Positions 1-19,626 of a DNA stretch of 64,000 nt are shown here, piece after piece. The DNA lies in assembly GCA_017999345.1 (NCBI GenBank), contig JAGNLY010000001.1, positions 88,744 through 152,743 of the forward strand. The letters run 5' to 3'. Source of the stretch: Candidatus Woesebacteria bacterium. GTDB taxonomy: Bacteria; Patescibacteriota; Microgenomatia; UBA1400; PJMF01. The position numbers were made by a program, and so were the translations under genes. The stretch's first letter is position 1. The number at the start of each line of letters is the position of its first letter. The notes below the pieces were generated by a model that searched no databases, was not told where the DNA came from, and saw nothing but the letters and a program-made list of their open reading frames with translations.

Positions 1-273
1 GTCAGAATCGTTAAGTTCGTCAAAATTGTTGCCATATATTAATTTTGGCAATGATAATTCAATCTTTAAAGATAAACCAAAAGTACCAAAATTAGTAAAC
101 CGCTTAGTTAGTGTAAGTCTGGGTTTATAGAAACCAGCCTTGAGTTCCGACTTTGTCGGATTTTGTTTACATTGCATATAACCTCGACCACCCATATAGC
201 CAGATCCCTCAGTTAAAATTCTAGCTGATGGTTCAAATCTATCTGGATTTTGTATTGTGTAACCCTCATGCAT
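1..273 (-). CDS. Hypothetical protein, N-terminal part only. The gene starts at about 273 and runs off the left edge of the window.
   Basis: An open minus-strand frame begins with ATG (plus-strand cat at ~271-273) and continues to position 1. The translation begins MHEGYTIQNPDRFEPSARILTEGSGYMGG. No family was recognised. Confidence 0.3.
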   Translation of the reverse strand, partial: MHEGYTIQNPDRFEPSARILTEGSGYMGGRGYMQCKQNPTKSELKAGFYKPRLTLTKRFTNFGTFGLSLKIELSLPKLIYGNNFDELNDSD

Positions 274-562
274 GACTAAAACTACTGTATCTAACATAAT
301 TTTTCATTACTTCTTCATATTTATTAATTACTGCTATTTCAACTTCATTACTCGCTATTTTGTTAATTGGATAAAATATATTTATTTTTGTGTTTGCAAC
401 CGCTTTTGTTGGGTATGTAAGTCTATATCCACCTTCAGGACGAGTAAAAATACCGATTGAGCCTAAATACCAGATATCATTTATTACTAGACTCGCAAAT
501 GCTACTAAGCCGTTATTTGGTTTTATTGGTGTAATTTGAATTTCACTTATTTTTTGATTCAT
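266..562 (-). CDS. spoVG: SpoVG family protein
   Basis: ORF 266-628, trimmed to the internal Met at 562 (MNQKISEIQITPIKPNNGLVAFASLVINDIWYLGSIGIFTRPEGGYRLTYPTKA). This matches the SpoVG core (NGL.A.AS...D....I..I.......G..L..P.K). An AAGGAAA ribosome-binding site sits upstream of the 562 start, and the gene ends in TGA. Confidence 0.8.
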   Translation of the reverse strand: MNQKISEIQITPIKPNNGLVAFASLVINDIWYLGSIGIFTRPEGGYRLTYPTKAVANTKINIFYPINKIASNEVEIAVINKYEEVMKNYVRYSSFSHA

Positions 563-674
563 ATATTTTTTTCCTTTTAATACCTTCTTTGATTGCTTCA
601 GAAAGACAAGATTTATAAATTTCTTCAAGCATTCTCATCAACTCTTTTTGGTACCTCATTTGTGCTTTGTTCAT
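543..674 (-). CDS. Small hypothetical protein of about 43 aa, upstream of spoVG
   Basis: Internal Met of ORF 543-740 (MNKAQMRYQKELMRMLEEIYK...). A strong AAAGGAG ribosome-binding site lies 5 nt upstream. No homology was recognised. Confidence 0.35.
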   Translation of the reverse strand: MNKAQMRYQKELMRMLEEIYKSCLSEAIKEGIKRKKIYESKNK

Positions 675-903
675 AAACGCTCCTTTCATTAACTTTTTTA
701 TTTTCTTGATCAATATCAATAAGAATGGAAAAGAAATCACGAATTTTATTCATTTCGTGTAACGAATAAGTAGAAGATGTTTTTTGATTATTAGTGCTTA
801 TTTCTTTCACAAGCACAGTTATATGGAAAAATGATTAATTGGTCGTTTTAGTCTCACAATTTCACACAATTGCTTACTAGACCTTACTTTGTCTCACTCT
901 GTC

Positions 904-1644
904 TCACAATTTTTTGAAATTTATTGCAGGTAAGTCATGTTTTATGGAGTATTCTCTTGATATGGGGTTCATGAACATAATTTTATCTTTTGTTATAACT
1001 GGGAAAAATATTTTCTTAAGATTGCCAGTAAAACCAAGATCTCTGACTATGTGAGCTAGCCTTTTATTTATTTTGCTTCCAACTGCTTGTCCAAGTTCTT
1101 CAATTCCAATTGGTCTGCCAGCATTTGCAAGTATATATTGAAAACAATTATCATTTTCAGAATCAAAATCTGGTTTAGCAATTACTAAATGATTGAGTTT
1201 AACCTCTCTAGTATGGTCATTGTATGTAATTTTGTACAAAATGCCTGCCTGATATTCTTTATCTGCAATTTCTCGTTTGATTGCAAGGCTTTGCTTTTCC
1301 TCAACTCTTATGATTATGTCTTCTAGTGCAAAAAGATGTTTTCCCAAACCATATGATAATTCGCCAATTGGGTGTGTAAAACTAAGGGCTTCACTTTTAA
1401 TTTCTACAAAGTGAAAATAATAGTGTCTGTCAAAGTTTTGAAAAATGTATTCAGCTACAGATCTATACCATGTGTTAATTTGACTATCATAATCTTCTTT
1501 AAACTTTATTAAGTCAAAACCATCTTTAATTTTTTCAGCGTCATATTTAGAGTAGCTTTGTCTTTTGAGTAAGAACCCAGCATAAAGAAAGTTATTGAGT
1601 TCGTCAAAGCTGATATTATTAGTAACGTTGTTATAACTTATCAT
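904..1644 (-). CDS. Hypothetical protein of 246 aa, the downstream partner of the DUF2779-like nuclease
   Basis: ORF with an ATG start. It overlaps the stop of the upstream nuclease gene by 14 nt, which suggests an operon. No family was recognised. Confidence 0.55.
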   Translation of the reverse strand: MISYNNVTNNISFDELNNFLYAGFLLKRQSYSKYDAEKIKDGFDLIKFKEDYDSQINTWYRSVAEYIFQNFDRHYYFHFVEIKSEALSFTHPIGELSYGLGKHLFALEDIIIRVEEKQSLAIKREIADKEYQAGILYKITYNDHTREVKLNHLVIAKPDFDSENDNCFQYILANAGRPIGIEELGQAVGSKINKRLAHIVRDLGFTGNLKKIFFPVITKDKIMFMNPISREYSIKHDLPAINFKKL

Positions 1645-3076
1645 TATTATTTTTTACTGTTTCACTAAATTTTCTATAAATCTCAACCATAGCCAAAGTA
1701 TCCAACTCACAATAATCTAGAAGATCTTTTGCAGTTTCATCAGCAGAAGTTCCAGCATTAGTTATCATATTCCACCAAGTAATCATCGCTTGGTCGCCTT
1801 TATTGACTGTAAGGTTCTTGTAAGAAAGGTTTGGCACCATAACAGGAAGGACATTTTTAATTGACCAAATTCCTCTAAACAATGGATGAACATAAAAACC
1901 TTCTTTAATTGGGTCAGCTAGGTCATACATCCTTTCATTTATATCCAATAAAAAGTCACTAAACTCAGGATGAATTTCTGCAAGTTCTTTGTTTCTGGTT
2001 GCTTCAAAGGTTTTATTCCAAACAAGTACTGAGCCAGTATTTCCAATGTCTCTTTTAAGCTGTTTTAAGAGGTTGGAACCTGGTTCGTTTGTATTTGTCG
2101 CTAGATATTCAGTATGGGTAAGTTCAGCGTTAGGATGCTCAAGTTTGTGAAGCGAATACTGAAACACCATTTGTTGTTGTGGGTGGTATCCGTCATGTAG
2201 GGGAATCGCGGAATTATATGTTTCGTAGTCCAAGAAGTACAAAGGATATGCAAGGTTTTCTAGTTCATGTTGAATGGCAGAATGGTCAATAATTGGTTCA
2301 TTTGTTTTTGCAACTTCTTTGACTAGATTTTGTTTGTAAGAAAGTTTGAAGTTATTTGGAATATCTTGGGCTTGAGTTACACCCATTTCAAGCAACTGTT
2401 TCTTTTTCTTTTTAGTTAGGTTTGGAATATCAAAAATAGAAAAAGTAGGTTTATCTTTATGACATAAGCTTTTGCATCGGCAGTTTTTGGGGTTGTAACA
2501 GGCTTCTATATTGAAGTGATTCTCACTATTAAGCACCAGTAAAGCTCTCTCTCGTTCAATATCCACATCTTGCAAAAGTTCTTTGACTTTATCTGTAATA
2601 TCTTCGGCAACAAATAGTGAATCAATGTTTAATGCACCAAAGCGAGTGTACTCAGCACTCAAGTGCAATATGTGAACTTTATTAATTTTGATGTGTTTAT
2701 TAAGAACTAGATACTGAAATGTCGCATCGTATAGGTTTGTTTTATCAACAGATGTTGAGCTTTTGATTTCGTAGATGTCGTAGGAGTTAGTTTCAGTATT
2801 GTGAATGAGGGCGTCGGCTTTAGCTTCGTAGTTTTTGTCGTTGTAAGTTGATTGCCAGATGAGTTTGAATTGAGGATTGTTGTGAACAAAGTTTTGTAAG
2901 TACTCTTTGGCAAGTTTTTCTACTTTGTATCCTTCTTGAAGAAGGTGTTGATCGTAAACAGTCAGTGGTTTTTCAAATTTATTGTTGTCATCTGCCCAAA
3001 GGTGCATTGGAGCATCAAGGTAGGTTAGGAAGTTTGATTTAGTTAGGTTTTTCATTACGTCTTTATTTTGAACCAT
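1631..3076 (-). CDS. Two-domain nuclease. The N-terminal part is a PD-(D/E)xK Cas4/RecB-like nuclease with a 4-Cys cluster. The C-terminal part is a DUF2779-like domain, probably a DEDD/RNase-H-fold exonuclease.
   Basis: Motifs YDIYEIKSS (D..E.K) and CYNPKNCRCKSLCH (a Cas4/AddB-like Cys cluster) are present. The C-terminal half contains FLDYETY and YCELDTLAMVEIY, typical of DUF2779. The start was placed at the first ATG (MVQNK...), whereas the ORF track begins at a GTG at 3109. Confidence 0.65.
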   Translation of the reverse strand: MVQNKDVMKNLTKSNFLTYLDAPMHLWADDNNKFEKPLTVYDQHLLQEGYKVEKLAKEYLQNFVHNNPQFKLIWQSTYNDKNYEAKADALIHNTETNSYDIYEIKSSTSVDKTNLYDATFQYLVLNKHIKINKVHILHLSAEYTRFGALNIDSLFVAEDITDKVKELLQDVDIERERALLVLNSENHFNIEACYNPKNCRCKSLCHKDKPTFSIFDIPNLTKKKKKQLLEMGVTQAQDIPNNFKLSYKQNLVKEVAKTNEPIIDHSAIQHELENLAYPLYFLDYETYNSAIPLHDGYHPQQQMVFQYSLHKLEHPNAELTHTEYLATNTNEPGSNLLKQLKRDIGNTGSVLVWNKTFEATRNKELAEIHPEFSDFLLDINERMYDLADPIKEGFYVHPLFRGIWSIKNVLPVMVPNLSYKNLTVNKGDQAMITWWNMITNAGTSADETAKDLLDYCELDTLAMVEIYRKFSETVKNNNDKL

Positions 3077-3095
3077 TATATAATGAACTTGAGAA

Positions 3096-3722
3096 ATGAG
3101 TATGTTCACAAATATATATCAGAAGATTTTTGCAATAAAAAAATATTGGTCTACTATTAGTTATTTTGATAGTTTCGAAAGGTATCATGTTATTTTTGAG
3201 CGTAAATCTTTTTTAGATTGTAAGATTCGTTTATGTAAACATGAGGAATACGTCAAATATGTCATGAGTACGATAGGTGAACATACAGATCCCAGACTAT
3301 TAATTAGAGATGTCTTGACGAAATCAAAGGGTTGCGTCTTCATTGTATTTGAGGCACCAGAAGGATATGTTCAGTTTTGGATTGCACAAGGTAGATTACA
3401 GGTGTGTTGGTTTTTAGATATATACGACAAAGATGAGTGGAAAAAAGATAAAAAAATAATTATAAGCATACTAAGAAAATTGAAAGTACCACGATGCATG
3501 AATGCAAGGAATACTAACAGTTTTGAAACCTACTATGCTTTTTTTAAGCTTGATAAAGATTCTGTCAGCAATGAGGATGGATTAAATGCTACAGCAGATG
3601 TCCCTATTTTTCGAGCAGATTTTAATAACGACAATGAACTCGCATCGCACTTTGTGATTCAAGTATTAGAACAGGTGTACAACTTGAAAACTATCGAGGA
3701 CTTAAGTGTCGATTTAAATTAG
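3096..3722 (+). CDS. Hypothetical protein of 208 aa
   Basis: ORF with no recognised domain. Its 5' end overlaps the divergent nuclease gene, so the true start may be the later Met (MSTIGEHTD, about 3264). Confidence 0.4.
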   Translation: MSMFTNIYQKIFAIKKYWSTISYFDSFERYHVIFERKSFLDCKIRLCKHEEYVKYVMSTIGEHTDPRLLIRDVLTKSKGCVFIVFEAPEGYVQFWIAQGRLQVCWFLDIYDKDEWKKDKKIIISILRKLKVPRCMNARNTNSFETYYAFFKLDKDSVSNEDGLNATADVPIFRADFNNDNELASHFVIQVLEQVYNLKTIEDLSVDLN

Positions 3723-3809
3723 CTTTTTTGATATATAGTATTACAAAAAATAGGTGTTATCAGGCTATAGTATAATCGTGATTACAAGAAACGTTTAGAA
3801 AAAGGAAAA

Positions 3810-4799
3810 ATGCCACACATTTTAATCAATGGGAAAAAGTTTGAGAAAAAAGATTTTGAACTTGAAAGTGATTTTGAGGATGCTGTAATTGAGAATAGCA
3901 CCAATCTATTCGGTCAAGATGCTATTTATATAGATGTCAAAAAATTAATTGGTACAGATAAGAAGTACCACAAAGGCATTCCAGACGGTTATTTAATAGA
4001 TTTTGTAGATTTGCAACAACCTCAACTGTATTTTGTTGAAAACGAGTTATCCGCTCATGATATTTATGGTCATATTACTGAGCAAATCGGTAGATTTAGT
4101 GCAATGACTATAAACTCCACAAGAGAGGTTAAAGATAAGCTTCTTGCAGTAATTAGAGAAGATGTAAAATTAATGAATCATTTACAGCAAAGAATTGAAA
4201 AGTCACCGTTTCATAATATAGATAACCTAATGGACTTCTTGACAGAAAAAAACCAAATAAAAATTGTGGTTGTTGTTGATGAAGAAACCAATGATCTTAA
4301 TTCAACCCTAAATATCTTTAGACAAAGACCTGATGTTGTTACACTTCAAAGGTATGAATACCAAAATGAAGTTGTTTATTTTTATCAACCAATGAGAGAA
4401 GAAATTGAAAACCAACAAATAATGGCAAAAGAAAATATTGTTAGAGAATTTGACACAGTTGTTTGTCCTGCATTTGAAGATGGTTTTAAAAAAGCATATC
4501 TTGAGCAAAGTGCCTGGTGGTCAATTAGATTGTCACAAAAAGCAATAGAGCAACTAAAATATTTAGCTATTTATGAGAAATCGCCAGTAGCAGAAATAAA
4601 ACATATAGCAGAGATTGACAGAATTGAGCCTTATAAAGATTCTGGTAAGTACATTTTATATCTTAAAAATAAAAGAAAAATTAACCCAGTAAAGCTCGGT
4701 AAGAATGCAAAGGCTGGCACAGCACCTCAAGGTTCAAGATATACAACTCTAGAGAAGTTGAGTAGTGTGAGTAAGTTGAATGAATTGTGGGGAAGTTAA
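3810..4799 (+). CDS. Hypothetical protein of 329 aa with a possible PD-(D/E)xK-type nuclease core
   Basis: A TATAAT box and an AAAAAGGAAAAATG ribosome-binding site lie upstream. The motif IPDGYLIDF...YFVENELS resembles a PD-(D/E)xK nuclease core. The assignment is tentative. Confidence 0.55.
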   Translation: MPHILINGKKFEKKDFELESDFEDAVIENSTNLFGQDAIYIDVKKLIGTDKKYHKGIPDGYLIDFVDLQQPQLYFVENELSAHDIYGHITEQIGRFSAMTINSTREVKDKLLAVIREDVKLMNHLQQRIEKSPFHNIDNLMDFLTEKNQIKIVVVVDEETNDLNSTLNIFRQRPDVVTLQRYEYQNEVVYFYQPMREEIENQQIMAKENIVREFDTVVCPAFEDGFKKAYLEQSAWWSIRLSQKAIEQLKYLAIYEKSPVAEIKHIAEIDRIEPYKDSGKYILYLKNKRKINPVKLGKNAKAGTAPQGSRYTTLEKLSSVSKLNELWGS

Positions 4800-4805
4800 A
4801 TCATA

Positions 4806-5393
4806 ATGATAGATAAAGAACTGTACCTAAAAATTTCAAAATCTTACGGTGAGTTTGCAAGTTGGGCAATTTGGGCAAAAGTAGGTGTTAAGCCAAAATC
4901 AAATATAGGTAACACAACTATTTTTGATTTGGAAAGTAATCCAGATTTATTAAATGAACTGAACCCAAACATTATTATGGTTGGGTTGAATTTTTCAAGA
5001 ATTGGAAGAAAAGAATGCTTCGCAAATTTTCATGATAGTAGACCTCAGGGACAAGATTATAAAATTAGGTATGCTTTCGAGGATACCAAGTTTTATGGTG
5101 CTTATATGACAGACATAATTAAAGATTTTGAAGAAAAAGTCTCAGGGAAAGTCATGTCATATTTAAGGAACAATGAAGAATTTGAACAACAAAATATCAA
5201 ATTATTCAAAGAAGAGTTGATTTCCTTAAATACTAAAAATCCTTTGATTATTGCGTTCGGAAACGATGTATATAAAATCTTACAAAAGCATTTTGTGGGT
5301 CAGTATCAGATTATTAAGATTCCTCACTATAGTAAGCATATTAGTAAAGAAGATTACAGAGCTGAAGTTGAAAAGTTATTGTCAGCTTACTAA
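4806..5393 (+). CDS. Uracil-DNA-glycosylase-superfamily-like protein (putative)
   Basis: IIMVGLNFS (UDG motif A-like G.NP) and IPHYSK (motif B-like HPS) are at the expected spacing. The gene is followed by an A1-type repeat. Confidence 0.5.
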   Translation: MIDKELYLKISKSYGEFASWAIWAKVGVKPKSNIGNTTIFDLESNPDLLNELNPNIIMVGLNFSRIGRKECFANFHDSRPQGQDYKIRYAFEDTKFYGAYMTDIIKDFEEKVSGKVMSYLRNNEEFEQQNIKLFKEELISLNTKNPLIIAFGNDVYKILQKHFVGQYQIIKIPHYSKHISKEDYRAEVEKLLSAY

Positions 5394-5459
5394 CTTTTTC
5401 TATTTTTAAATTTGTAAGTTATTATTTTGTGTCTTAATTAGTAATCTTGCAAATTTTTC

Positions 5460-5541
5460 AGCAAATCCATTAGTTTCATCCTTACTAATCCCCAGTAAAT
5501 CCTCTTTATACCCGTTCCGTAACGAGTCCAATAAGGGGAGC
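5460..5541 (+). repeat. Intergenic repeat, module A1 (long form), ending GGGGAGC. No module B follows it.
   Basis: aaatccattagtttcatccttactaatccccagtaaatcctctttatacccgttccgtaacgagtccaataaggggagc. The same element recurs at ~7338 and ~16045. Confidence 0.8.
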
Positions 5542-5569
5542 TTATGAGTAAATATATTGATAAACCAAA

Positions 5570-6484
5570 CTATTTTACGTTTAAATGGTGTTGGTTTTCA
5601 CTGTGTTTGTCAGTAACACAATCCACGCCTGAACAAGAGCTTTCATTCTCTATCTCAATAGTGGAGTGCTCAATGTGATGTTTTTCCAGTTCTGTTTTAA
5701 TAAGTGATTTCATTTCTTCTGCTTTGCTCGTAACCTGATCTTTGATGACAACATGCCCTGTGAATACGTCGGTTTCGCCATCAAGTGACCATACATGAAT
5801 GTCGTGAACTCCTACAACCTCTTTGACTTTGAGCAAACCTTTTTTGATATGGTCAATATTAATATGACTAGGTACTCCCTGCATTAAAATATTTAGGCTT
5901 TCTTTCAGATTTTTACTTACACCCCACAATATGAAAACGGTATACCCAATTGTCATAATTGGGTCGATGATAGGGTTGTTCCAAAAATACATCACTACAC
6001 TACCTATTAACACCATTACCCAACCCAATACATCTTCGAGTAAATGCCAAGTCAACGCTTTTTCGTTCATACTTTGACCACTTCTCAGTTTTAAGAAACC
6101 AAAGCCATTGAAAATCACACCAATAATGGCCAAGAAAATCATGCCCTGTACATGGACAGGTTCAGGATTGAGTAAACGCGGAATTGCTTTGCTAAGAATG
6201 AAGAGAGATCCACTCATTAACACAACTGAGGTGAAGACAGCAGCACCTAACGAAAGTCGTTTATACCCAAAGGTTCGTTTTTGATCAGGTCCTTGCTGAG
6301 ACTTTTTCTCGGCAATCCAAGCTAAAATGAGAACTAAACTATCACCAAAGTCGTGAAGAGCGTCAGACAAAATTGTCAAACTATTAGTAAAAAGACCTCC
6401 AGCGATCTCAATCAGTGTAAAAGTAATGTTTATGACAATTGCCCAAGAAAGATTATTTGTTTTGCCGTGATCGTGTGAGTGCAT
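5570..6484 (-). CDS. Cation diffusion facilitator (CDF) family metal efflux transporter of the CzcD/ZitB type
   Basis: Six transmembrane helices and a His-rich N-terminus (MHSHDHGK). The sequence contains typical CDF signatures (SLAILSDALHDFGD, HVWSLDGETDVFTGHVVI). Confidence 0.85.
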   Translation of the reverse strand: MHSHDHGKTNNLSWAIVINITFTLIEIAGGLFTNSLTILSDALHDFGDSLVLILAWIAEKKSQQGPDQKRTFGYKRLSLGAAVFTSVVLMSGSLFILSKAIPRLLNPEPVHVQGMIFLAIIGVIFNGFGFLKLRSGQSMNEKALTWHLLEDVLGWVMVLIGSVVMYFWNNPIIDPIMTIGYTVFILWGVSKNLKESLNILMQGVPSHINIDHIKKGLLKVKEVVGVHDIHVWSLDGETDVFTGHVVIKDQVTSKAEEMKSLIKTELEKHHIEHSTIEIENESSCSGVDCVTDKHSENQHHLNVK

Positions 6485-6579
6485 ATTTTAATTCTAACTG
6501 AAATAATCATTTTTATGCTGGTGAACTTTGAGCATATGATAGAGTATTTCTTTTTAAGTTGATATACTTTGTAATAAGT

Positions 6580-7284
6580 ATGTCTATTCCTTCAGAACTA
6601 ATAAAAACTAATTCTAAATATCAAGTTAAAGACGATATTTTCATTTTTACTCAAACAGAAGACCTTAGAAAAGATAATAAAAAATATTCTGGTTTTTACA
6701 ATGTAATCGCTAATCTATATGATATAGGTTCCAAAGTTTTTTTTTGGTTTCATGGTGGTGAAATAAAGGCAAGAAAAGAGTTTCTTGAAGAACTAAAAAT
6801 TGTATCTGGAGCTAAAGTATTAGAGGTATCTATTGGAACAGGGACGAACATTTCAATGTTACCTAAAGACGCTGATTACTTTGGAGTTGATATTTCATAT
6901 GGGATGCTAAAAAAATGCCAACAGAACTTGAACAAAATGGGTAGACAATCACTCTTGTTCCAAGCTGAAGCAGAGCACTTACCGTTTAATGATAATACAT
7001 TTGACTCAGTATTTCATGTGGGTGGCGTCAACTACTTTAATGAAAAAGGCAAAGCATTGGCTGAAATGGTTCGTGTATCTAAGTCTGGTACCCATCTCAC
7101 CATTGTTGATGAAACGGACAAATTTTTTGAGACACTTAGTTGGATACCATTTTTGAAAAATGCATTTCCCACAGGAAAAGCTACCAAACCACCTACTGAA
7201 TTATTACCTAGTGGTATGAAAAACATTCAAGTCAGTGAAATCGTGAATGGGAATTATTGGAGACTGACTTTCCAGAAGCCCTAG
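6580..7284 (+). CDS. Class I SAM-dependent methyltransferase (UbiE/COQ5-like)
   Basis: Motif I is VLEVSIGTGTN, followed by FGVDISYGML and FDSVFHVGGVNYF. The start was placed at ATG 6580, just downstream of TGATATACT (an extended -10). Confidence 0.8.
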   Translation: MSIPSELIKTNSKYQVKDDIFIFTQTEDLRKDNKKYSGFYNVIANLYDIGSKVFFWFHGGEIKARKEFLEELKIVSGAKVLEVSIGTGTNISMLPKDADYFGVDISYGMLKKCQQNLNKMGRQSLLFQAEAEHLPFNDNTFDSVFHVGGVNYFNEKGKALAEMVRVSKSGTHLTIVDETDKFFETLSWIPFLKNAFPTGKATKPPTELLPSGMKNIQVSEIVNGNYWRLTFQKP

Positions 7285-7337
7285 TTAATTTTTCGAAGAT
7301 TTATATTTTTTTAGATTTGACTAACTGACAACTGAAC

Positions 7338-7458
7338 AAATTGTTTACTAAATCTATTAACTTCATCTTTATTTATCCCTAACAAATGCTCTTTATATCC
7401 GTTCCGTAACGAGTCCAATAGGGGGAGCAATAACCAAATTAGATCTATATACCAATCT
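7338..7458 (+). repeat. Intergenic repeat: module A1 followed by a degenerate module B
   Basis: ...ctctttatatccgttccgtaacgagtccaatagggggagc then aataaccaaattagatctatataccaatct. Confidence 0.8.
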
Positions 7459-7660
7459 AAATTTAACTATCACACACAACATTTCAATATAAAATTGAAT
7501 AGAAATTCACTATCTTTGTTGTGTTTTTATTGTATCCTAAAATAGATTAAGAAATTTGATAATTAATCTATTTATAATATATATTTATTATTTGTGTTCG
7601 GATTCATTTTAAGTTATGCTTTCTCATGAAGAGACATAAAAAAATATTTAAAAATAAGTT

Positions 7661-8500
7661 ATGAATCAAAATGAATCGCCATCGGAAATAATTGAAAAAC
7701 TTACTGAAAGTAATAAAGAATTTCGTTCAAATACCTTACCATCGATTGATGATTTACATACTATGGCATTGATGACTCAAGACAAAGGTCTCGAATTGGG
7801 AGTTTCACTTTATACAGCATCCAAAGGAGAAATAAAAGGATCTGCATTTAATGTCGGAACCGAAAGAAGCATCTACGAGCCCACACCCCCACGTGAATTA
7901 AGAGGAAAGATTTCATCGGGTGTTTTTATTCATTGTCATCCAATTTCCGAAGATGAGAGAGTTCCTGACGGAAAATCACTTCATATACTTCCGAGTGGAA
8001 CACAGCCATTCGAAGGAGATTTTGAAGCAAGCTATATGTCTAGAGTTGTTGCAGGATACTTAAATGTTGCGAGCGAATATGGACTAACAATGATGGTAGG
8101 AATAGAAGGAATTGCAAGAGAAGATGACATTACTAGAAAAATGAGAGAAAAACTTGGTCGTTCTGATTTGGCAAGAGAACGCACATGGAAAGTTCTTAGT
8201 GGAGAACAAGGTGGTGTTGCTATGGTTGGCGATGAGTTTAAAGTAGCGGTAGACGATAAGTTTTCAATTAATGAGGATGTTGTTTTATTAAGTAACACTC
8301 AAGAGCTTGGAGTTAGATACTTTCTTCATATATCTTGGGATAAACTTAAAGAGTTGGAAAAAAGCTATGGCTCATTAGAAAATCTCTGTTTTGGCGATGG
8401 ACTTGAGTCTTTGCTTCAAGAACTAAATATTGAAGTACAACACGAAAAAAATTTGGGTTCTGCGGCTGTTCAAGTTTATAAGATGCCAAAAGAGAGATAG
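7661..8500 (+). CDS. Hypothetical protein of 279 aa
   Basis: ORF bounded by repeats on both sides. No family was recognised. Confidence 0.6.
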   Translation: MNQNESPSEIIEKLTESNKEFRSNTLPSIDDLHTMALMTQDKGLELGVSLYTASKGEIKGSAFNVGTERSIYEPTPPRELRGKISSGVFIHCHPISEDERVPDGKSLHILPSGTQPFEGDFEASYMSRVVAGYLNVASEYGLTMMVGIEGIAREDDITRKMREKLGRSDLARERTWKVLSGEQGGVAMVGDEFKVAVDDKFSINEDVVLLSNTQELGVRYFLHISWDKLKELEKSYGSLENLCFGDGLESLLQELNIEVQHEKNLGSAAVQVYKMPKER

Positions 8501-8524
8501 TCTAGGCTCTTAATATCTAAATCT

Positions 8525-8611
8525 GAGATAGTTAGCAATCCTTCCTCATAACCGTTCCTTAACGCATCCGTCAGGGGGAGCTTTTTCCAAAATAGATCTA
8601 TATATCAATCT
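8525..8611 (+). repeat. Intergenic repeat: module A2 followed by a degenerate module B
   Basis: aatccttcctcataaccgttccttaacgcatccgtcagggggagc then tttttccaaaatagatctatatatcaatct. Confidence 0.75.
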
Positions 8612-8650
8612 TTTTAAAATATTATGTATAAATTATACAGTAGGAGTGCG

Positions 8651-9118
8651 TTAACTAATTGATGTAAATATGGATTTTTCTAGGTATTGCTGTGCTTGAG
8701 CAACTAATCCATTTAGATAATCAGTTATCTCACTTGCCAAATGACCCTCAGTTGCCTTTGTGATTAGTAACTTACAGATCTGTGTTGCATAATAACCATT
8801 TGGATCTTTATCTTTATCGCATAGGTTTACTCTTGCAAGTTCAAATTGTTCTACTTCTTCCAAATTACCTTTATCACTTGATAAATAACCTATTAACCAA
8901 TATTCTTTGTCTGTTTCATTAGATTCTAGTCCAGCACTAACTCTAGTTTCAGTATTGAGTTCGTCATTTCTTGCTACTTGATTGAAAATTACATCAATTG
9001 TTGGCATGAGTAAAACATCTGCCGTTTCTGGATGTGCATTTTCTCCCGATATTAGTTCAGCAGAAGTGCAGATGGAATTTGAAACAACTGAATCATAGCC
9101 TTTGAGTATCATAAACAT
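8651..9118 (-). CDS. Hypothetical protein of about 155 aa. This is the only inverted gene inside the repeat-bounded array.
   Basis: ORF track 8651-9184, trimmed to the internal Met because the N-terminal poly-Ile extension is a translated AT-rich leader. The module B promoter on the opposite strand points into this gene. Confidence 0.55.
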   Translation of the reverse strand: MFMILKGYDSVVSNSICTSAELISGENAHPETADVLLMPTIDVIFNQVARNDELNTETRVSAGLESNETDKEYWLIGYLSSDKGNLEEVEQFELARVNLCDKDKDPNGYYATQICKLLITKATEGHLASEITDYLNGLVAQAQQYLEKSIFTSIS

Positions 9119-9162
9119 AAATATATCATATTTTATTCTAATGATAATAATAATTATTAGAT

Positions 9163-9257
9163 AAACAAGTAATTTTCCACCCACTTCCTAGTTCGAGTAA
9201 CAACCTGTTGGGGGAGCTTTTAAATTATAGGCTTATTTACGCCTATATACCAATCCT
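9163..9257 (+). repeat. Intergenic repeat: module A3 followed by a full-length module B
   Basis: aagtaattttccacccacttcctagttcgagtaacaacctgttgggggagc then ttttaaattataggcttatttacgcctatataccaatcc. The B module is identical to the copy at 16132-16170. Confidence 0.85.
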
Positions 9258-9311
9258 TTTTAATTTATATATGATCATCAGTAATTTTTAGTTATTTGAT
9301 ATAATTACTGA

Positions 9312-10529
9312 GTGATAAGTAAAGAACTACAAGAAATTTTGGATACAAGGATAGAGTCAGAGGCAACTTTAAATACGCTTTTTGCCGTTATCAGAAGTGG
9401 TTTGTTGGGTGAGATTAATGCTACTCAAAAATTAAAATTATCTGCTAGATTTGAGGAAGCCTCAATTGTTTTAAGAGAGCTCAGCGAATCGCCTAAAGAA
9501 GAAATTGCACAAACACTTCAACATGAGCAAGATAATTTAAAAGAATTACCACCATTGAATATACAATTACCGCAAATTTCTTATGGAAAGAGAATGCCTT
9601 TGGGAAGAAAGGCATATGAATATACCTTTGGTAATAGTAAAAATGCATCATCATATAAATTTTCAGATAATCCAGCTTATTATTTTACAATGGGTCAGCA
9701 GAATGACGTCAATGCAAGAGAATCTGAATTTTATAGAAGAGAAGTATTAAGGTCAAACATACCTAGGGCTATTATTCTTGATACCAGTTATATAACCGAA
9801 AGAGGCGTAAGTTTAATTAGGTTGTATAGGATGCATGATGGTTTATTTGAAAATGTCCAAGAAGGAGTTTTTGATAATTCTCGTCCATTCAAACAGGCCG
9901 ATGTTACGGTTTTGAGTCCAAAAGGAAAATTTGAGGCTGAAAATAATGAAATAATTATTGCCTTATCAAAAGGATATTCAGTATTTCCAAAAATGGCTTT
10001 TGGAGAAAGATTCACGTTTGATAGAGGACAAGAAATTTATAATGATAATTTGCTATCAGCTGACAAAACTAATTTTGATAATCGAGAGGCATTACTATGG
10101 AAAAATAATAAATTAAATTCTGATAAAGTAGTTGAAATAATAGCAAAAAGCTTACTTTACTTAAAAAAAGGAATGTCAATAATAATTTTTTCAGACCTAT
10201 TGGAGATAAGTAATCTTGATGAAATTGATAAGACAATTATATTTGAAATGATATATTTTCTTGCATTAGGAATGGGAATTACAGAGTCTCTTGGCTTCCA
10301 ATCGGACCTTTCTGCGAGATCGCCTCAGAAAGTAAATTTTTATAATTCAAATGATCGACCTGAAGGAATTTTTCATAAGCCTAAAGAAGTTGTTTGGATA
10401 AATAAACAGCCAGAAGAAAAAACTCAAGAAGAGATTGCGCTCGTAGAAAAAATAAACGACACATTTAGGTCTGGAGGAAGTTGGATAGAGAACTATGAAA
10501 AGTGGAAAGAAGCATTTCTAAATAAGTAA
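9312..10529 (+). CDS. Hypothetical protein of 405 aa
   Basis: ORF with a GTG start 9 nt after TGATATAAT (an extended -10). Its TAA stop is the first triplet of the following A3 repeat. Confidence 0.6.
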   Translation: MISKELQEILDTRIESEATLNTLFAVIRSGLLGEINATQKLKLSARFEEASIVLRELSESPKEEIAQTLQHEQDNLKELPPLNIQLPQISYGKRMPLGRKAYEYTFGNSKNASSYKFSDNPAYYFTMGQQNDVNARESEFYRREVLRSNIPRAIILDTSYITERGVSLIRLYRMHDGLFENVQEGVFDNSRPFKQADVTVLSPKGKFEAENNEIIIALSKGYSVFPKMAFGERFTFDRGQEIYNDNLLSADKTNFDNREALLWKNNKLNSDKVVEIIAKSLLYLKKGMSIIIFSDLLEISNLDEIDKTIIFEMIYFLALGMGITESLGFQSDLSARSPQKVNFYNSNDRPEGIFHKPKEVVWINKQPEEKTQEEIALVEKINDTFRSGGSWIENYEKWKEAFLNK

Positions 10530-10604
10530 TTTTCCACCCACTTCCTAGTTCGAGTAACAACCTGTTGGGGGAGCAAATACTAAATTATAGCCATAAACCA
10601 ATCT
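10521..10604 (+). repeat. Intergenic repeat: module A3 followed by a degenerate module B
   Basis: aagtaattttccacccacttcctagttcgagtaacaacctgttgggggagc then aaatactaaattatagccataaaccaatct. Confidence 0.8.
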
Positions 10605-10971
10605 TTTTTAATATCAATTTTTTTTAAACAGTTGTAATTATTTATTATAATTTTATACTGATGTTAGCGTTAATTAATTCTATATATGAATCTAATTGCA
10701 TTTTTTTACTTATATTGGAAACAGATAATTGCTGTAATTTTGTTTGTTTTACTACCATTTATTTGGCTGTCATTTCAATGGGGACTTATTATTTATTTAA
10801 TTGAAACTAAACTTAGACCTAAGTTAAAGAAAAAGAATTAGAGGTTATTAAAAATGTTGTCAACTCTCTTTTTAAGAAAATTATAAGTACAGTTGAAGTT
10901 GAATAATTGTTTTCTAGATATTCTCAGTCTGTTTCAAAGAAAATTTGTTAACATGTTATAATCTGTTTCAT

Positions 10972-11598
10972 ATGAAAAAAAATAAGATTATAATAATTTT
11001 ATTAGCTTTTTTAATCACTTTCTTTGGAATTTATTTACTCTCAAAAAACGTTAGATTTAATGATAATAAGAAAGTTGTTGCTGAAACAGAAAATGATAAT
11101 TTGGAGCTTGAAGAAATTTCCCACTTTGATGATGACGCACTAGGGTTATCACTTAATTTTCCTGAGGGATGGTTTATCCACAAAGTAACTTCAAATGGCA
11201 ATGGAGCAAGACAAGTTACATTTACAAATCATTATTCTATAAATCCACCATGGGATTTAGATGAAAATAGCGGAATTGCTATTTTTGTTTCAAACAGTGT
11301 TTTAGACACCTGTTACTCTGAAGATGATTATCAACCAATGATTGATTTACCAATGAATGACAAATATAAAAATGAATGCAGAATCTTTACTAAGATAAAT
11401 GAATTTATGATCGATGGAAGCACTGCATATGTATTTGAACAACAAAATGTTGGTTCATCTATTGAAGGTGAAGCTAAGATTAATCTTTATTTAATTAATA
11501 CTCCTTCAGGTACAATTAATTTGGAGATCTTTAGCAAGAATTTAGATTTATCATTCGAAAAACCTGAACACATAATTTCTTCTGCAAGTTTATTGTAG
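10972..11598 (+). CDS. Secreted or membrane-anchored hypothetical protein
   Basis: N-terminal signal or anchor (MKKNKIIIILLAFLITFFGIYLLS). ATG 10972 follows TGTTATAAT (an extended -10) by 9 nt. Confidence 0.65.
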   Translation: MKKNKIIIILLAFLITFFGIYLLSKNVRFNDNKKVVAETENDNLELEEISHFDDDALGLSLNFPEGWFIHKVTSNGNGARQVTFTNHYSINPPWDLDENSGIAIFVSNSVLDTCYSEDDYQPMIDLPMNDKYKNECRIFTKINEFMIDGSTAYVFEQQNVGSSIEGEAKINLYLINTPSGTINLEIFSKNLDLSFEKPEHIISSASLL

Positions 11599-11880
11599 TT
11601 CCATTATTTTTCATATAACTCAACCATAATCATATTTCTTTGTATAAGCCTTATACATTGACCATATAATCTTACCCTATATAATCAGTTTTTGTGCACT
11701 ATAAATAGTACACAACATAGTCATAGAAGGTTAGCAATAGTACAAAAACGTATTTGAGCTGGCCCGATGGATTGTTCTTTAACAGTTGAATATAAAAAAG
11801 GAGGTAGTCTTCTCAAAAATGTTCGTTGTTGTTTAATCAGATTTTCAAAACGATTTCTATAGAAAAAGGAGTTAGGTACT

Positions 11881-14800
11881 ATGTTAGCAAAACATAAGTT
11901 TTTCAGATTTTTGTTAGCTTTTTGGTTAATTATGTCGCAAGGCATAACAGCTTTGGCATCTGGTGAGCTTTCAAGCTACAGGTTGCCTTACTATGGACCA
12001 GCAGAGATGGTCTATGGAAGTTCATATCATTCAGGCCTTTCATTCCAAGCAAGAGATTTTGATATTGGAGTGGATACAGGTGTATATGCTGACGAGGAAG
12101 GATATGTACTATTTGCTGGCTGGCGAAATGATGGCTTTGGATATACTCTTGTGTTGATGCACGATGATGGTTACATGAGTCTGTTTGGACACTTATCTAG
12201 AGCCACATACGACCAAGGTGATACTGTCAATGATGAGGTCTTTTTTGCAGTAAGTGAAGGAGAAAATGTTGCTAAAGGACAATTGATTGCTTTTACTGGC
12301 AATTCTGGATCGAATGGCAGCCCAGCTCATCTGCATTATGAGGTTAGATACAATAATGATTTCAATGGACAGACACATCAACAAATTCAAGGAACTGCAT
12401 CGCTAAATAACTTTTGGTTGGCAGATCAGGCAGTGAGTCTTGACTCTATACCTGATTTAGATGCAAACAACTACTCAAATGATATGGTTGGTCCGCCTGT
12501 TTCAGATCCTGCATGCGGAGATAGGTCATATTCTGGCATAGATTTTTTTGATGATGAATATTGCCAGAATCAAAGCCTGTGGTATTCAAATTCCACGGGT
12601 TCACAAAGTGTTTCTGCACAAAATGTTGAATCAATTTTTGTTGGCTCAGGATGGTCCGCATACATTACTGATGGAGTCAATGTAGGCATTTGTGCAAACA
12701 GAAATCTATGGGATTTGGGAAAAGATTTTTACCCAAATGGCAGTAATATAAAACACAACATTGCATTTGTTCAGGTTTACAATGATTCTACTTGCAATGG
12801 TATGGTTGAGCCTTATAACCCAGATATATCTGCCAGTGGAGGTACTGGAGGCGGTGGAACTGCGAGTGGTTATGTAGAGATCTTCCAATCCACTAACTTT
12901 GGTGGAACAAAATTGGGAGACTACTCAATTGGTACTCACAGCTTTTCTGTAAATACCCTAATGTATTCTTTCAGAATGAAAGATGGGGCTAACAGTTTTG
13001 TTGTGAAGGACGACACTGGCAACAACCAATGCTTTGACTCAGATGTTTCGAATATGCAAGATAATTCAGATTTTTGGAACAAAACGGTTGAAGTTGAGGT
13101 TTTCACAAGCAATGTTTGTGGAAGCGTTAACGGTGAAGTTATAGTTTACAGCGCTACAAACTATACTGGAAATGTGGTAGGAACTTACACGGCAGGCAAT
13201 ACATACACCTTCCCTGTAAATACTCTCATGTTTTCTTTTGATACAAATGGCGCTGGTAGTTTTGTCGTAACTGCTCCTGATGGACGTCGTCAATGTTTTA
13301 ACTCTGACGTCCCAAACATGCAAGATTATTCTGAATACTGGAGAGAAACGATAAAACTTGAAGTAAATACGAACGACTACTGTCCTCCTGTTGGCAGTCC
13401 TGCTCCTGTAGTAGGGAGTGGGAATGGTCTTTGGAGAAATGAATTTAGAATCCTTTGGGAGGAAGTAGATATTCCAGATTTCACTTACATTGCCCCATTA
13501 TCTTGGGGTCCTGTAAACACAGTAACAAGAGAAGGTCACTCTAGAAGTGATCAATTTGGTATGCAGTTTGAAGGTTGTATAGAGCTTCCAGCTACTGATA
13601 CATATACTTTCTATCTTCTGTCTGACGATGGGAGTAGGCTGTACATTGATAATCAGCTGGTAGTTAATAATGATGGTCGACACTCTGCAACTGAAGTAAG
13701 TAGTTCTGTTGTCAAACAATCAGGACAATATGATTTCAAGGTTGATTACTATGAAGATGATGGTGGTGAAGAGCTGTTCTTACAAGTCTCGACACCAACA
13801 ATGACAAAACAACCTGTTCCTGATAGTTGGTATAGCTATGGCTTGGCCTGTACTGGTGTTCAAGTGGGAACCCCACTAAATACTTCCAGTTGGGCATATA
13901 GCCAAACCCTCACAATCGATTCAGATTTTGTGGGTGAAGATTTAATAAACTTTCCTGCGCTTCTGTCTGATGGAGTTTTCGTAGATGATGTTTACGTAAA
14001 CGCCTTGGATAATGGTGCAGATCTTAGATTTACTTCAGATGCTCTTGGAACTAATGAACTAGCTTTCGAAGTAGTGAGTTGGAACCAATCTGCCAAAACC
14101 AGTGAAGTTTGGGTCAATATACCCAGTGTGTCGGCTTCAGTCGATACATCAATATACGTTTGGTATGGCAATACATCTGCTGTGGCATATGCCAGTGGCG
14201 AAACGTATGGTAGCCAAAATGTGTGGGGTGACTACGCGTTGGTTATGCATATGAGCCAATATGGTAAAGCAAGTTTTGATTCAACCAGCAACTACAACAA
14301 TGCTCGGTCTACTATGAGCATTGCAAGTAATGTTGGAAAGGTGGGTTCGGCGTCTGATTTTGAGGCTGATGGTAGTCAATTTATGACCATTATGCCTAAT
14401 AACAATACGCTGGATTTACCGACTTACACTATTCAAGCATGGGCTTTCAACGAGTCCTTTGCTTATACATATCCATCGATTGTTAATAACAGAAGTGCAT
14501 CAAGTTCGAATGGTAACTATGTTGTTATGTTCCATGGTGATATCGGATACAAACCGCATTCACAACATTGGACGGGATCAGCATGGTCATCTGTTCCATG
14601 GGGAACTAGTGCTTCGCCACAAACTTGGTACATGGTTAACGCAGTATACGATGGTTCATTGCACAAAATGTCTGTTGATGGCGATTCTTTTGTCATTGGC
14701 AGCAGTCAAGTCGCACCACAGCTTAACGATAATCCAATCTTGATTGGCAACTATACGTCCAACTACTTTGATGGACTTATTGATGAGTTGCGCATGAGTG

Positions 14801-15882: not shown

Positions 15883-15984
15883 AAAGAGGCTTAAATATAA
15901 AATATTCAACAATTAAAGATTTAAAAAATGTTTTTTGCTAACACTGGCTCAAATTTGCGAGTCAATTGTTAACAGAAGATAAGT

Positions 15985-16026
15985 AACTAAGACCCTCAGG
16001 TTTGATAACTGAGGGTCTTTTTTTTA
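15985..16026 (+). terminator. Rho-independent terminator
   Basis: gaccctcag - gtttgataa - ctgagggtc followed by a T-run. Confidence 0.75.
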
Positions 16027-16044
16027 TTGAAACTGTTACAAAAT

Positions 16045-16170
16045 TGTATGTTAAATTCTTTAACCTCTGACATAGTGATCTCTAACAAATGCTCTTTATA
16101 TCCGTTCCGTAATGAGTCCAATAGGGGGAGCTTTTAAATTATAGGCTTATTTACGCCTATATACCAATCC
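16045..16170 (+). repeat. Intergenic repeat: module A1 (long form) followed by a full-length module B
   Basis: ctctaacaaatgctctttatatccgttccgtaatgagtccaatagggggagc then ttttaaattataggcttatttacgcctatataccaatcc. Confidence 0.85.
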
Positions 16171-16276
16171 TCTTTTAATATAATGAAAAACTACTTAACT
16201 TTAAAAATTAAGTATCTTTATTTGTCAGTAAATTTTTATGTTACATAAAAAATAAAAGTAATGGTATTCTTTATTT

Positions 16277-18409: not shown

Positions 18410-18481
18410 TTAGTTTTTTAACAATATTAAAATTTTTCTGAAAACAAAAATCCCATAACAAATTTCTCAACATTTTTCTTC

Positions 18482-18559
18482 CAGATCTGATGAGTTCGAG
18501 TAACAACCTGTTGGGGGAGCTTTAAAATTATAGGCTTATTTATGCCTATATACCAATCT
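18482..18559 (+). repeat. Intergenic repeat: module A4 (a 5'-truncated relative of A3) followed by a full-length module B
   Basis: ctgatgagttcgagtaacaacctgttgggggagc then tttaaaattataggcttatttatgcctatataccaatct. Confidence 0.85.
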
Positions 18560-18568
18560 TTTTTTACA

Positions 18569-18634
18569 TATACACCCCCGACAGGACACTTTAGCCTTGG
18601 ACCCGAACAGAGTAAACTATTTGATATAATATTT
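18569..18634 (+). promoter_or_regulatory. Module C upstream element ending in the extended -10 TGATATAAT. It probably produces a leaderless transcript for gene 18637.
   Basis: cccccgacaggacactttagccttggacccgaacagagtaaactatttgatataat, with the ATG 8 nt downstream. Confidence 0.55.
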
Positions 18635-18636
18635 AG

Positions 18637-19128
18637 ATGAACAAACTTACTCTTGAAGCAGCAAAAGTACTTAAAAAAATTCTGTATATAAATATTGCAT
18701 CGATTACTCCAGAAGGTGAGCCATGGAATACACCAGTATATTGCGCATATGATTCAAAGTTAAATTACTATTGGTTATCATGGAAAGATAACCAACATTC
18801 TATAAATGTTAGAAATAATCCCAAAGTTTTTATAACTTCTTATGATTCGACAGTTCCCGCAAGCACAGGTTTTGGCGTGTATCTAAAAGGAGAAGCAAAA
18901 GAATTAAAAAATCCAAAAGATATGTTGATTGCGATAACAGAAGTTTATAAAAGAGAAAAAAGAAAACCAAGACAGGTTGCTGAATTTCTCAAAAAGTTTC
19001 CTAGAAGAATATACAAGTTTACACCAAATCAAGTGTGGGTTAATGGAGACGCTAAAATAGATGGAAACTTTATTGATGTTCGTACAGAACTTAATCTAGA
19101 TGAACTTAGGGAAGCTATAAAGAAATAA
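18637..19128 (+). CDS. Pyridoxamine 5'-phosphate oxidase-like (PNPOx-fold) FMN-binding family protein
   Basis: The N-terminal pattern LYINIASITPEGEPWNTPVYCAYD...NPKVFI is typical of PNPOx-like general stress proteins. A paralogous fold is encoded at 41927. Confidence 0.65.
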   Translation: MNKLTLEAAKVLKKILYINIASITPEGEPWNTPVYCAYDSKLNYYWLSWKDNQHSINVRNNPKVFITSYDSTVPASTGFGVYLKGEAKELKNPKDMLIAITEVYKREKRKPRQVAEFLKKFPRRIYKFTPNQVWVNGDAKIDGNFIDVRTELNLDELREAIKK

Positions 19129-19139
19129 AGGTTTTTGCT

Positions 19140-19574: not shown

Positions 19575-19626
19575 TAAGTAATTTTCCACCCACTTCCTAG
19601 TTCGAGTAACACCCCAGCGGGGGAGC
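19571..19626 (+). repeat. Intergenic repeat, module A3 variant. Its 5' end overlaps the tandem TAA stops of the GNAT gene, and it has no module B.
   Basis: taagtaattttccacccacttcctagttcgagtaacaccccagcgggggagc. Confidence 0.8.

Follow-up and report, generated by a model that had tools for sequence, protein, structure and literature searches.

A nuclease-rich locus of a Candidatus Woesebacteria genome as the probable variable cargo end of a tycheposon-like element

Five neighboring genes at positions 904 to 5393 of a 64-kb stretch of a Candidatus Woesebacteria genome, a member of the Candidate Phyla Radiation (CPR), encode several nuclease-like and orphan proteins next to an array of cassette-like units. 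Here, the whole 64-kb stretch is referred to as the window, and all positions are given in window coordinates unless another locus is named. The question raised by the locus is whether the five genes make up a dedicated nuclease system, as was suggested by an earlier inspection of the DNA that made no use of databases (here called the sequence-only reading), or whether they were brought together in some other way. We found that the neighborhood is mobile and, as that reading had supposed, defense-like, and that it is probably the variable, defense-type cargo end of a tycheposon-like CPR element rather than a multi-gene nuclease system. All five genes very probably lie inside a single large serine recombinase (LSR) element, and the chances are about even that the cargo genes act in defense or conflict. 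Two of the five products are candidate nucleases of a type known from defense islands. New here are a family of CPR elements with a delimited variable slot and two single-gene candidates from that slot, referred to below as p329 and p195.

The gene for the LSR is located outside the window, about 5.6 kb to its left, in locus L001, which supplied the off-window part of the same element. The protein matched the Resolvase (E = 1e-17), Recombinase (E = 3.3e-13) and Zn_ribbon_recom (E = 1.3e-6) models. In every related locus with enough sequence, the LSR gene either stopped at a tRNA gene (Asn, Gln, Trp or Thr) on the opposite strand or ran into it by a few bases, and the tRNA gene followed directly after the LSR gene in 8 loci (L007, L010, L011, L012, L014, L015, L100 and the tail of L001). 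The core sequence GCTCCCC(C/T), which is the sequence of the tRNA at its 3' acceptor end, was present at the LSR/tRNA junction and again at window positions 5535-5541. Since the core and a conserved arm were located distal to the DUF2779 gene and the variable cargo in 4 elements (window 5535, L016:7814, L002:3423 and L100:2316), these genes are placed inside the element. The element-side arm (5405-5534, minus strand) continued the reading frame of the LSR (...WLP|LLDSLRNGYKEDLLGISKDETNGFAEKF...), and the P' arm at the distal attachment (att) site encoded the LSR-frame tail LPLLDSLRNGYKEDLLGISKDETNGFAEKFARLLIKTQNNNLQI followed by a stop codon. This frame was open in all 6 copies of the distal arm, the other 2 frames containing 1 to 8 stop codons, and in L002 the arm was included in a single called open reading frame (ORF) together with a C-terminal fragment of the LSR. 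Judged from these comparisons, the junction at 5535-5541 is the distal att site, so that all five genes would lie within one element of about 11.2 kb, spanning window positions -5613 to 5541. The DUF2779 gene was also considered as a chromosomal target for integration, and this was rejected because the same att arm lies well beyond the gene in the 4 elements. The genes and sites of the locus are as follows.

1-297, minus strand: 5' end of a Rep-like gene (first 99 codons of a 389-aa protein), the remainder being beyond the left window edge; identified by tblastn with the L001 protein.
266-562, minus strand: SpoVG-like core gene (98 aa as called in L001); Pfam SpoVG, E = 5.7e-8.
543-689, minus strand: small 48-aa ORF between p246 and the SpoVG-like gene; ORFs of 46 to 60 aa occur at the same position in related loci.
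904-1644, minus strand: p246, a 246-aa predicted winged-helix core protein of the element; AlphaFold2 (AF2), Foldseek and synteny.
1631-3076, minus strand: DUF2779 two-domain nuclease of 481 aa (492 aa if started at 3109); Pfam PF11074.
3096-3722, plus strand: p208, a 208-aa orphan that opens the divergent cargo operon; no family match.
3810-4799, plus strand: p329, 329 aa, PD-(D/E)xK-like plus ASCH; AF2 and Foldseek.
4806-5393, plus strand: p195, 195 aa, uracil-DNA glycosylase (UDG) superfamily-like, the last cargo gene before the distal end; family motifs and a sub-cutoff match to Pfam UDG.
5405-5541, minus strand: distal attachment site (attL-type junction) with core GCTCCCC at 5535-5541; comparison of core and arm.
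5542-20400, no strand assigned: eight further cargo-only units of the array, bounded by cores in the same orientation.

The ORF listing bore out the positions and strands that had been given for the five genes, and every motif that had been quoted was present in the translations. A tblastn search of the window with the Rep-like protein of L001 showed 100% identity over residues 1-99; the window thus begins inside this gene and the element extends past its left edge. The leftward operon, on the minus strand, consists of the genes for DUF2779, p246, the small ORF, the SpoVG-like protein, the Rep-like protein, HTH_17, the Dcm and D12 methyltransferases with an HNH_2 endonuclease, and the LSR, whereas the divergent rightward operon, p208-p329-p195, ends at the distal att junction. 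The HTH_17 protein is likely an excision or directionality factor. The Rep-like orthologue in L002 had a precomputed Pfam match to Phage_CRI, and a search with the Rep-like protein against 50,697 phage records gave nothing. The five genes are flanked by the SpoVG-like gene on the left and by genes for a CDF transporter and a methyltransferase on the right. A scan for promoters and terminators found fewer sites than in shuffled sequences.

In the tail of L001, the LSR stop codon was located within the acceptor and T-arm sequence of the tRNA, and in relatives with a complete copy this tRNA is tRNA-Asn. Because the stop codon sits inside the tRNA, integration would change the C-terminus of the recombinase; in the excised form, the ORF would instead run on into about 40 aa of conserved tail encoded at the opposite end of the element. 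The L001 contig had no terminal overlap and therefore gives no evidence of a circle. It was also noted that the LSR ORF crosses the att core into the tRNA in L001 (8630-8673), L005 (11964), L007 (16758), L012 (13493) and L100 (13923), and that L014 contains 2 tRNA-Gln genes (15341-15412 and 16691-16762) downstream of a distant serine recombinase, the first of which is located about 140 nt after it.

The sequence-only reading had paired the gene for p246 with the overlapping nuclease gene as members of one system. The 2 genes indeed have the same orientation and overlap by 14 nt, and overlaps of 4 to 14 nt were found in 5 independent elements, in the window and in L002, L016, L099 and L101. The co-occurrence of the pair was not conserved, however, as p246 was found without DUF2779 in 7 of 12 contexts. 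The gene upstream of p246 was DUF2779 in the remaining 5 (window/L001, L016, L002, L099/L100 and L101), and Bro-N, DUF3800 or others elsewhere. Downstream of p246, the gene order was constant in all 12 contexts: small ORF, SpoVG-like gene, Rep-like gene (about 385 aa), HTH_17, variable methyltransferase or restriction-modification (R-M) genes, and LSR. The SpoVG-like gene adjoined the p246 family in L001-L004, L007, L008, L012, L016 and L099-L101, and the small ORFs between the two were seen in L001, L002, L005, L016 and L101.

The AF2 model of p246 (pLDDT 89.9) consisted of long N-terminal helices and a C-terminal winged-helix domain, and no nuclease features were seen in it. Foldseek searches against the PDB retrieved OmpR/PhoB effector domains only (probability 1.0, E values of 0.02 to 0.1, TM-scores normalized to target length of 0.6 to 0.68). 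The family comprises about 55 clusters, none of which has a precomputed Pfam match, and the members from genomes are almost all from CPR; a profile search of IMG/VR gave nothing. According to the model, p246 is an OmpR/PhoB-type winged-helix protein and not a nuclease. The p246 gene is a core gene of the integrative element and not a nuclease subunit, and its proposed role as a partner in a nuclease system was not upheld.

The slot between the distal arm and p246 differed from element to element, with the following contents.

Window: p208, p329, p195, DUF2779.
L016: SLFN_AlbA_2, acetyltransferase, DUF2779.
L002: SocA_Panacea gene and an adjacent 142-aa ORF, DUF2779.
L099/L100: 149-aa ORF, SocA_Panacea, DUF6602, p329, DUF2779.
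L003: GIY-YIG (overlapping the distal core), Bro-N.
L005: 198-aa ORF, DUF3800.
L007: one 305-aa ORF.

The genes upstream of DUF2779 were entirely different among elements in which the DUF2779 proteins were 64% to 87% identical, and the Rep and LSR proteins had diverged to 38% to 54% identity among the elements that retain DUF2779. A comparison of L099 with the window gave identities of 92.7% for p329 (L099 7529-8518 against window 3810-4799), 74% for DUF2779, 70% for p246, 50% for the LSR and 41% for the Rep-like protein. The p329 gene has thus been exchanged recently and independently, since it is 92.7% identical while the other element genes are 41% to 74% identical.

Searches with the five proteins against the PADLOC-DB 2.0 profiles matched no named defense system, in agreement with the sequence-only reading; the sole match was a spurious one of p195 to Csm2 (E = 0.004, 15.5 bits). 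PHROGs and NCBIfam gave nothing of weight for p246, p208, p329 and p195, and the only significant Pfam match was obtained for the 481-aa protein. This protein matched the full DUF2779 model (PF11074, positions 1-126) over residues 280-405 with an E value of 3.3e-39 and 134.5 bits, compared to a cutoff of 23.3, and had a weak match to UU173_fam in NCBIfam. The family has more than 4,500 homologue clusters, many of them about 470 aa in length with identities of about 50% over 96% to 98% of the sequence, from sources that include Patescibacteria, Anaerolineaceae and Clostridiales. To our knowledge, no member has a demonstrated activity. In an alignment of 25 sequences, residues D88, E103, K105 and Q121 of the N-terminal nuclease domain were invariant and D100 was nearly so, while the DEDDy residues D283, E285, D385, Y455 and D459 (Y455-x3-D459), which were assigned to the Exo I-III motifs by inference from PMC13621843, were all invariant. 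The two-domain nuclease that had been proposed for this gene is thus supported by both the Pfam match and the invariant catalytic residues. The gene probably starts at the ATG at 3055, because the homologues begin with MKNLTKS.

The protein had also been described as carrying a Cas4/AddB-type cluster of 4 Cys. In the same alignment, the 4 Cys were confirmed (C193-x5-C199-x-C201-x3-C205-H206, invariant or nearly so), but the layout was not, since they form one contiguous block C-terminal to the nuclease core and no N-terminal Cys is conserved, whereas Cas4 has one N-terminal Cys and a C-terminal CX2CX5C. The D...ExK and QxxxY-type motifs and a Cys cluster near the nuclease core are shared with Cas4 and the RecB family. 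Unlike Cas4, however, the protein is fused to a DEDDy exonuclease, has no match to Cas4 or PDDEXK models at the level of hidden Markov models (HMMs), and is encoded in an element without cas genes. No Pfam nuclease model matched residues 1-270, even at E<=1, and a PDB sequence search with the single sequence and with a profile gave no match. The protein was filed under DUF2779 and not under Cas4, because the Cas4 link was not reproduced by HMM and the Cys layout differs.

The DUF2779 family has previously been placed in the 3'-5' exonuclease clade of the RNase H-like proteins (family F.17) and described in fusion with a PD-(D/E)xK (DUF83-like) domain (Majorek et al. 2014, PMC3985635). The same fusion of a Cas4-like and a DEDDy domain was reported in a 2026 mSphere paper for the quasi-essential protein MMSYN1_0389 of JCVI-syn3.0, along with HHpred similarity of the family to the Cas4 structures 7MID and 4IC1 (PMC13621843). 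Gene 1631-3076 is an ordinary member of this large family, with a two-nuclease architecture that is already published, and is predicted to encode a dual exonuclease acting on 5' and 3' DNA ends. Homology to PF11074 and MMSYN1_0389 extends over the full length, with the N-terminal PD-ExK and C-terminal DEDDy domains and all of the catalytic residues kept. The window copy, however, retains the 4 clustered Cys and the His, compared to only 2 Cys in MMSYN1_0389, and is cargo of an integrative element rather than a quasi-essential chromosomal gene. Close relatives (73% to 74% identical) were also found without p246, adjoining a type I R-M system, or AbiE, Fic and an SLFN helicase, and in L018 a lone DUF2779 gene was located between cassette-type cores.

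These contexts bear on the strongest of the alternatives, in which DUF2779 together with p246 would be the DNA-processing module of the element itself, trimming or resecting DNA during replication, recombination or transfer. Cas4/RecB-like exonucleases process DNA in phages, which is the analogy behind this explanation. The DUF2779 gene is the first gene in the core operon that ends with the recombinase and is translationally coupled to it, it has been kept across elements with diverged Rep and LSR proteins, and both of its nuclease active sites are intact; solo Cas4-like genes are moreover known in phages and mobile elements (PMC13621843). However, unrelated genes take its place in the 7 of 12 related elements that lack it, and its close relatives stand alone beside R-M or Abi genes or in cargo-only cassettes, without the element core. 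We therefore regard a processing role as possible but rather unlikely.

For p329, the sequence-only reading had pointed to a PDG...ENE core, and P58, D59, E77, N78 and E79 of this core were indeed invariant or nearly so in 36 homologues, as were E19/E23. At least 230 homologues of 325 to 330 aa were found in CPR, Woesearchaeota, Heimdallarchaeota and Smithella, none of them with a Pfam domain, and their identities of 52% to 63% across bacterial and archaeal phyla indicate horizontal transfer. The AF2 model (pLDDT 85.4) contained an N-terminal alpha-beta-beta-beta-alpha domain, a helical to alpha-beta middle part and a C-terminal ASCH domain. The order of helices and strands in the N-terminal domain, together with E19/E23, PD59 and E77-N-E79, is compatible with a PD-(D/E)xK fold. 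The C-terminal domain matched ZmASCH (5y6c/5gus) in Foldseek with E values of 2.9e-4 to 1.2e-3 and a probability of 1.0, and the N-terminal domain gave weak matches to NucS/EndoMS, BsmI, Exo5 and Cas4 (probabilities of 0.06 to 0.63); a PDB sequence search gave nothing.

Among the neighbors of p329 homologues were Eco57I-type N6-methyltransferases in 16 loci, where they were often encoded directly downstream in the same orientation, type IIG R-M enzymes in 9 loci, and type III Res-like helicases in 8, with AbiE, SLFN_AlbA_2, GmrSD and a helicase-MTES_1575 nuclease as further recurrent neighbors. A methyltransferase of the Eco57I, type IIG, Dcm or D12 type was present within 4 kb in about 24 to 26 of the 55 loci with enough flanking sequence. 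No relative of p208 or p195 was found near the p329 homologues in 80 metagenomic loci, and a DUF2779 gene was found in only 1 of the 80. The p329 gene represents a widespread, unannotated family and is independently mobile and associated with R-M systems. It was also noted that a p329 homologue precedes co-oriented Dcm, D12 and HNH_2 genes in L024 (824-5089), and that the products of these are 69%, 70% and 49% identical to those of the off-window trio of the window element.

Modification-dependent restriction enzymes are built from a sensor of the PUA superfamily and a nuclease (PMC6765204), and R-M systems are known to be accompanied by ASCH and EVE proteins (PMC7641849). The pairing of ASCH, a PUA-superfamily domain, with a PD-(D/E)xK-like domain in p329 resembles that in YenY4I and VcaM4I (PMC6765204, PMC7897488), although the order of the domains is reversed in p329, with the nuclease at the N-terminus, and the Lys of the third motif is missing. 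As in the PUA-sensor enzymes, the sensor domain of p329 also occurs with a different nuclease-type module and in defense-type neighborhoods. The C-terminal 110 to 170 residues were found on plasmids of Magnetococcus (L102 3173-3943) and Tolypothrix (L103 3558-4502), where they are 36% to 47% identical to the ASCH part of p329 and follow another N-terminal module. This module is GIY-YIG according to the RefSeq name, a visible GVYIL...YIGQS...R...E motif and a weak match to Cho; Pfam and NCBIfam did not confirm GIY-YIG on the 2 plasmid fusion proteins.

The claim that the 195-aa protein is UDG-like was weak for the protein itself, which scored 15.1 bits (E = 0.025) against Pfam UDG (PF03167), below the gathering cutoff of 24.3, but the GLNxS and HY motifs were kept across its family of 963 representative clusters. 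Residues G60, L61, N62, S64, H174 and Y175 were invariant or nearly so at the sites that correspond to UDG motifs A and B, and the UDG model matched 7 of 42 relatives at E<=0.01 (best E value 2.4e-5). A PDB sequence search found no solved relative. The protein shares motifs with the uracil-DNA glycosylase superfamily but scores below the cutoff, and can tentatively be assigned to a UDG-fold family. Relatives fused to DUF4268 (2) and TIR_2 (1) point away from a family engaged in housekeeping repair. For p208, neither Pfam, NCBIfam, PADLOC nor PHROGs gave a match, the 90% cluster held only the 2 start variants from this genome, and the gene was absent from all related loci.

It is thus very unlikely that the five genes, or at least the pair of DUF2779 and p246, represent a dedicated and unrecognized multi-gene nuclease defense system. 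The recurrent overlap of the pair, a neighborhood rich in nuclease-type folds that no known system matches, and the occurrence of p329 and DUF2779 as divergent neighbors also in the element L099 would speak for such a system. However, the five genes form no conserved five-gene unit, and p246 does without DUF2779 in most contexts while always accompanying the SpoVG/Rep/HTH_17/LSR module. Furthermore, its winged-helix model is not that of a nuclease, and its family of about 55 clusters is set against more than 4,500 for DUF2779. Nor does p208 have any homologue, the p329 loci lack the other cargo genes with a single exception for DUF2779, and the unequal identities to L099 of p329, DUF2779 and p246 indicate separate gene histories.

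Least probable of all is that the element was simply inserted next to normal chromosomal genes for repair or housekeeping, namely those for a RecB-like nuclease and a uracil-DNA glycosylase. The very wide distribution of DUF2779, its quasi-essential status in a minimal cell and the UDG-like fold of p195 would fit this explanation, but the distal att junction at 5405-5541 lies beyond p195 and encloses DUF2779 also in L016, L002 and L100, the genes upstream of closely similar DUF2779 copies are wholly different, p329 shows signs of horizontal transfer, and p195 has no trusted UDG-family match and has relatives fused to TIR and DUF4268.

If the locus is the cargo end of an LSR element, as we favor, the LSR would recombine two sites, one within the 3' end of the ORF encoding it and the other at the tRNA 3' end, and the excised circle would replicate through the Rep-like protein. 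The p246 protein may serve as a DNA-binding core factor, either as a regulator or as an origin or partition binder, and exchangeable accessory genes would be accommodated between the p246 gene and the distal att arm, a slot that DUF2779 occupies in one sub-lineage. In p329, the ASCH domain is predicted to read a nucleic-acid or modified-base feature and the PD-(D/E)xK-like domain to cut, while p195 may be a base-flipping protein with a UDG fold. Most likely, DUF2779, p329 and p195 would act singly, as cargo in defense or inter-element conflict, and not as subunits of one machine.

The cassette-like array noted next to the five genes proved to be real. The window contains nine GGGGAGC-ending junctions, all of them on the plus strand and confined to 5535-20394, compared to a chance expectation of about 1 such 7-mer as estimated from base composition. 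The cores are located at 5535, 7422, 8575, 9211, 10568, 16125, 18514, 19620 and 20394, and each sits within a conserved junction. On one side of the junctions was a recombinase-tail-coding arm of 3 types (LLDSLRNGYKE..., QQVVTRTRKWVENYL and VIEEIRKCFL), and on the other side a conserved arm, TTTTAAATTATAGGCTTATTTACGCCTATATACCAATCT, with a 7-bp hairpin; in the older junctions, this non-recombinase arm was located directly at the core, an arrangement that would not be expected if complete tandem elements had simply decayed. A tblastn search with the LSR found no recombinase in the window, and the eight further units contain cargo only, with genes for the CDF transporter and methyltransferase, an M23/PA14/LamG surface protein, PNPOx and GNAT, and RibD_C. 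Arrays of the same type were found in L018 and in L100, which has 4 junctions in the same orientation and an array that lies beyond the distal att arm of an element anchored at tRNA-Asn. The window element is the newest unit of the array, which can be explained by accretion of this element family at a tRNA. A classical integron array was considered as well and rejected, as the recombinase is of the serine type and the arms of the junctions are its own tail-coding sequence. ARAGORN found no complete tRNA in the whole window; a tRNA T-arm-like fragment, CCCAAACAGGACTCGAACTCCTGT, is present at about 19665-19690, just right of the core at 19620. The gene for the 1333-aa M23/PA14/LamG protein contains internal repeats about 1 kb apart (14206-15602).

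The closest described analogue of the element and its array appears to be the tycheposon system of Prochlorococcus, in which tRNA-targeting recombinases, a minority of them serine recombinases, are combined with small integration and replication modules and cargo that accrete in tandem to build genomic islands (Hackl et al., bioRxiv 10.1101/2020.12.28.424599). As in tycheposons, a site-specific recombinase beside a tRNA is accompanied in the window element by integration and replication modules and exchangeable cargo, and the window array resembles an island into which successive units have been pushed, leaving cargo-only remnants. The differences are that the host is a CPR bacterium, that the recombinase is a large serine recombinase, the minority type among tycheposons, and that the element repeats only a tRNA-derived core of 7 to 8 bp inside the recombinase ORF and not a partial tRNA. 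Like integrons, the array is one-directional, with short conserved junctions and promoter-poor cargo beside a site-specific recombinase. In contrast to integrons, the recombinase is of the serine type rather than IntI, the junctions do not resemble attC hairpins, the cargo is on both strands, and the array is anchored at a tRNA gene.

A bolder interpretation, which we consider doubtful, is that the cluster is the payload of a CPR-specific gene-capture system based on a serine recombinase, with an integron-like array, an att site inside an ORF, regeneration of the target and movement of cassettes in trans. The att site inside the 3' end of the LSR ORF could then mean that integration at tRNA-Asn swaps the tail of about 40 aa for an "R-stop", and this swap could work as an inherent switch between the integrated state and the excised one. 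Every integration would regenerate the target, two-armed cargo-only cassettes would be moved in trans, and p329, possibly with p195, would be a new type of single-gene, modification-sensing defense nuclease.

Several observations weigh against the conclusion that the locus is the defense-type cargo end of a tycheposon-like element. The att sites were delimited by sequence comparison, and neither an excised circle nor an empty site was observed. There is no direct repeat of tRNA length, the common core being only 7 to 8 bp; a search for 23-mer tRNA repeats with 3 mismatches allowed gave nothing, and blastn-short searches of each tRNA against its own locus gave chance-level matches only. The Rep label comes from the Phage_CRI match of one orthologue, and the version in the window matches nothing in Pfam or PHROGs. 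As for the cargo, none of the five proteins reached a meaningful score with a PADLOC or PHROGs model, and the link of the N-terminal part of the DUF2779 protein to Cas4 was not reproduced with HMM tools. The family also has housekeeping-type roles, given that it is quasi-essential in JCVI-syn3.0 (PMC13621843). The PD-(D/E)xK assignment of p329 is weak, its third motif being ExE and not ExK, and its gene is often located beside methyltransferase genes, unlike those of characterized modification-dependent enzymes, which are usually without them (PMC6765204).

Mobile elements and defense in CPR/Patescibacteria have been little described, and a full-text literature search on serine-recombinase mobile elements at tRNAs in Patescibacteria retrieved nothing related. 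The element family is fully delimited: its ends can be recognized, its core is constant, and its variable slot offers a place to look for new genes of defense or conflict. The present candidates are the PD-(D/E)xK-like/ASCH family of p329, found with R-M systems across bacteria and archaea, and the UDG-fold family of p195 with its TIR and DUF4268 fusions. The locus also shows that some DUF2779 lineages behave as mobile cargo.

Three further features were noted elsewhere in the window. A SAM riboswitch (RF00162, 48.8 bits) was found at 38516-38612 on the minus strand, directly upstream of a 325-aa ORF at 37545-38522. A 37-nt unit occurs twice in tandem with 95% identity at 60658-60731, and a 151-nt segment with 84% identity (20886-21036 and 23680-23830) is common to the ORFs at 20525-21769 and 23628-24518.

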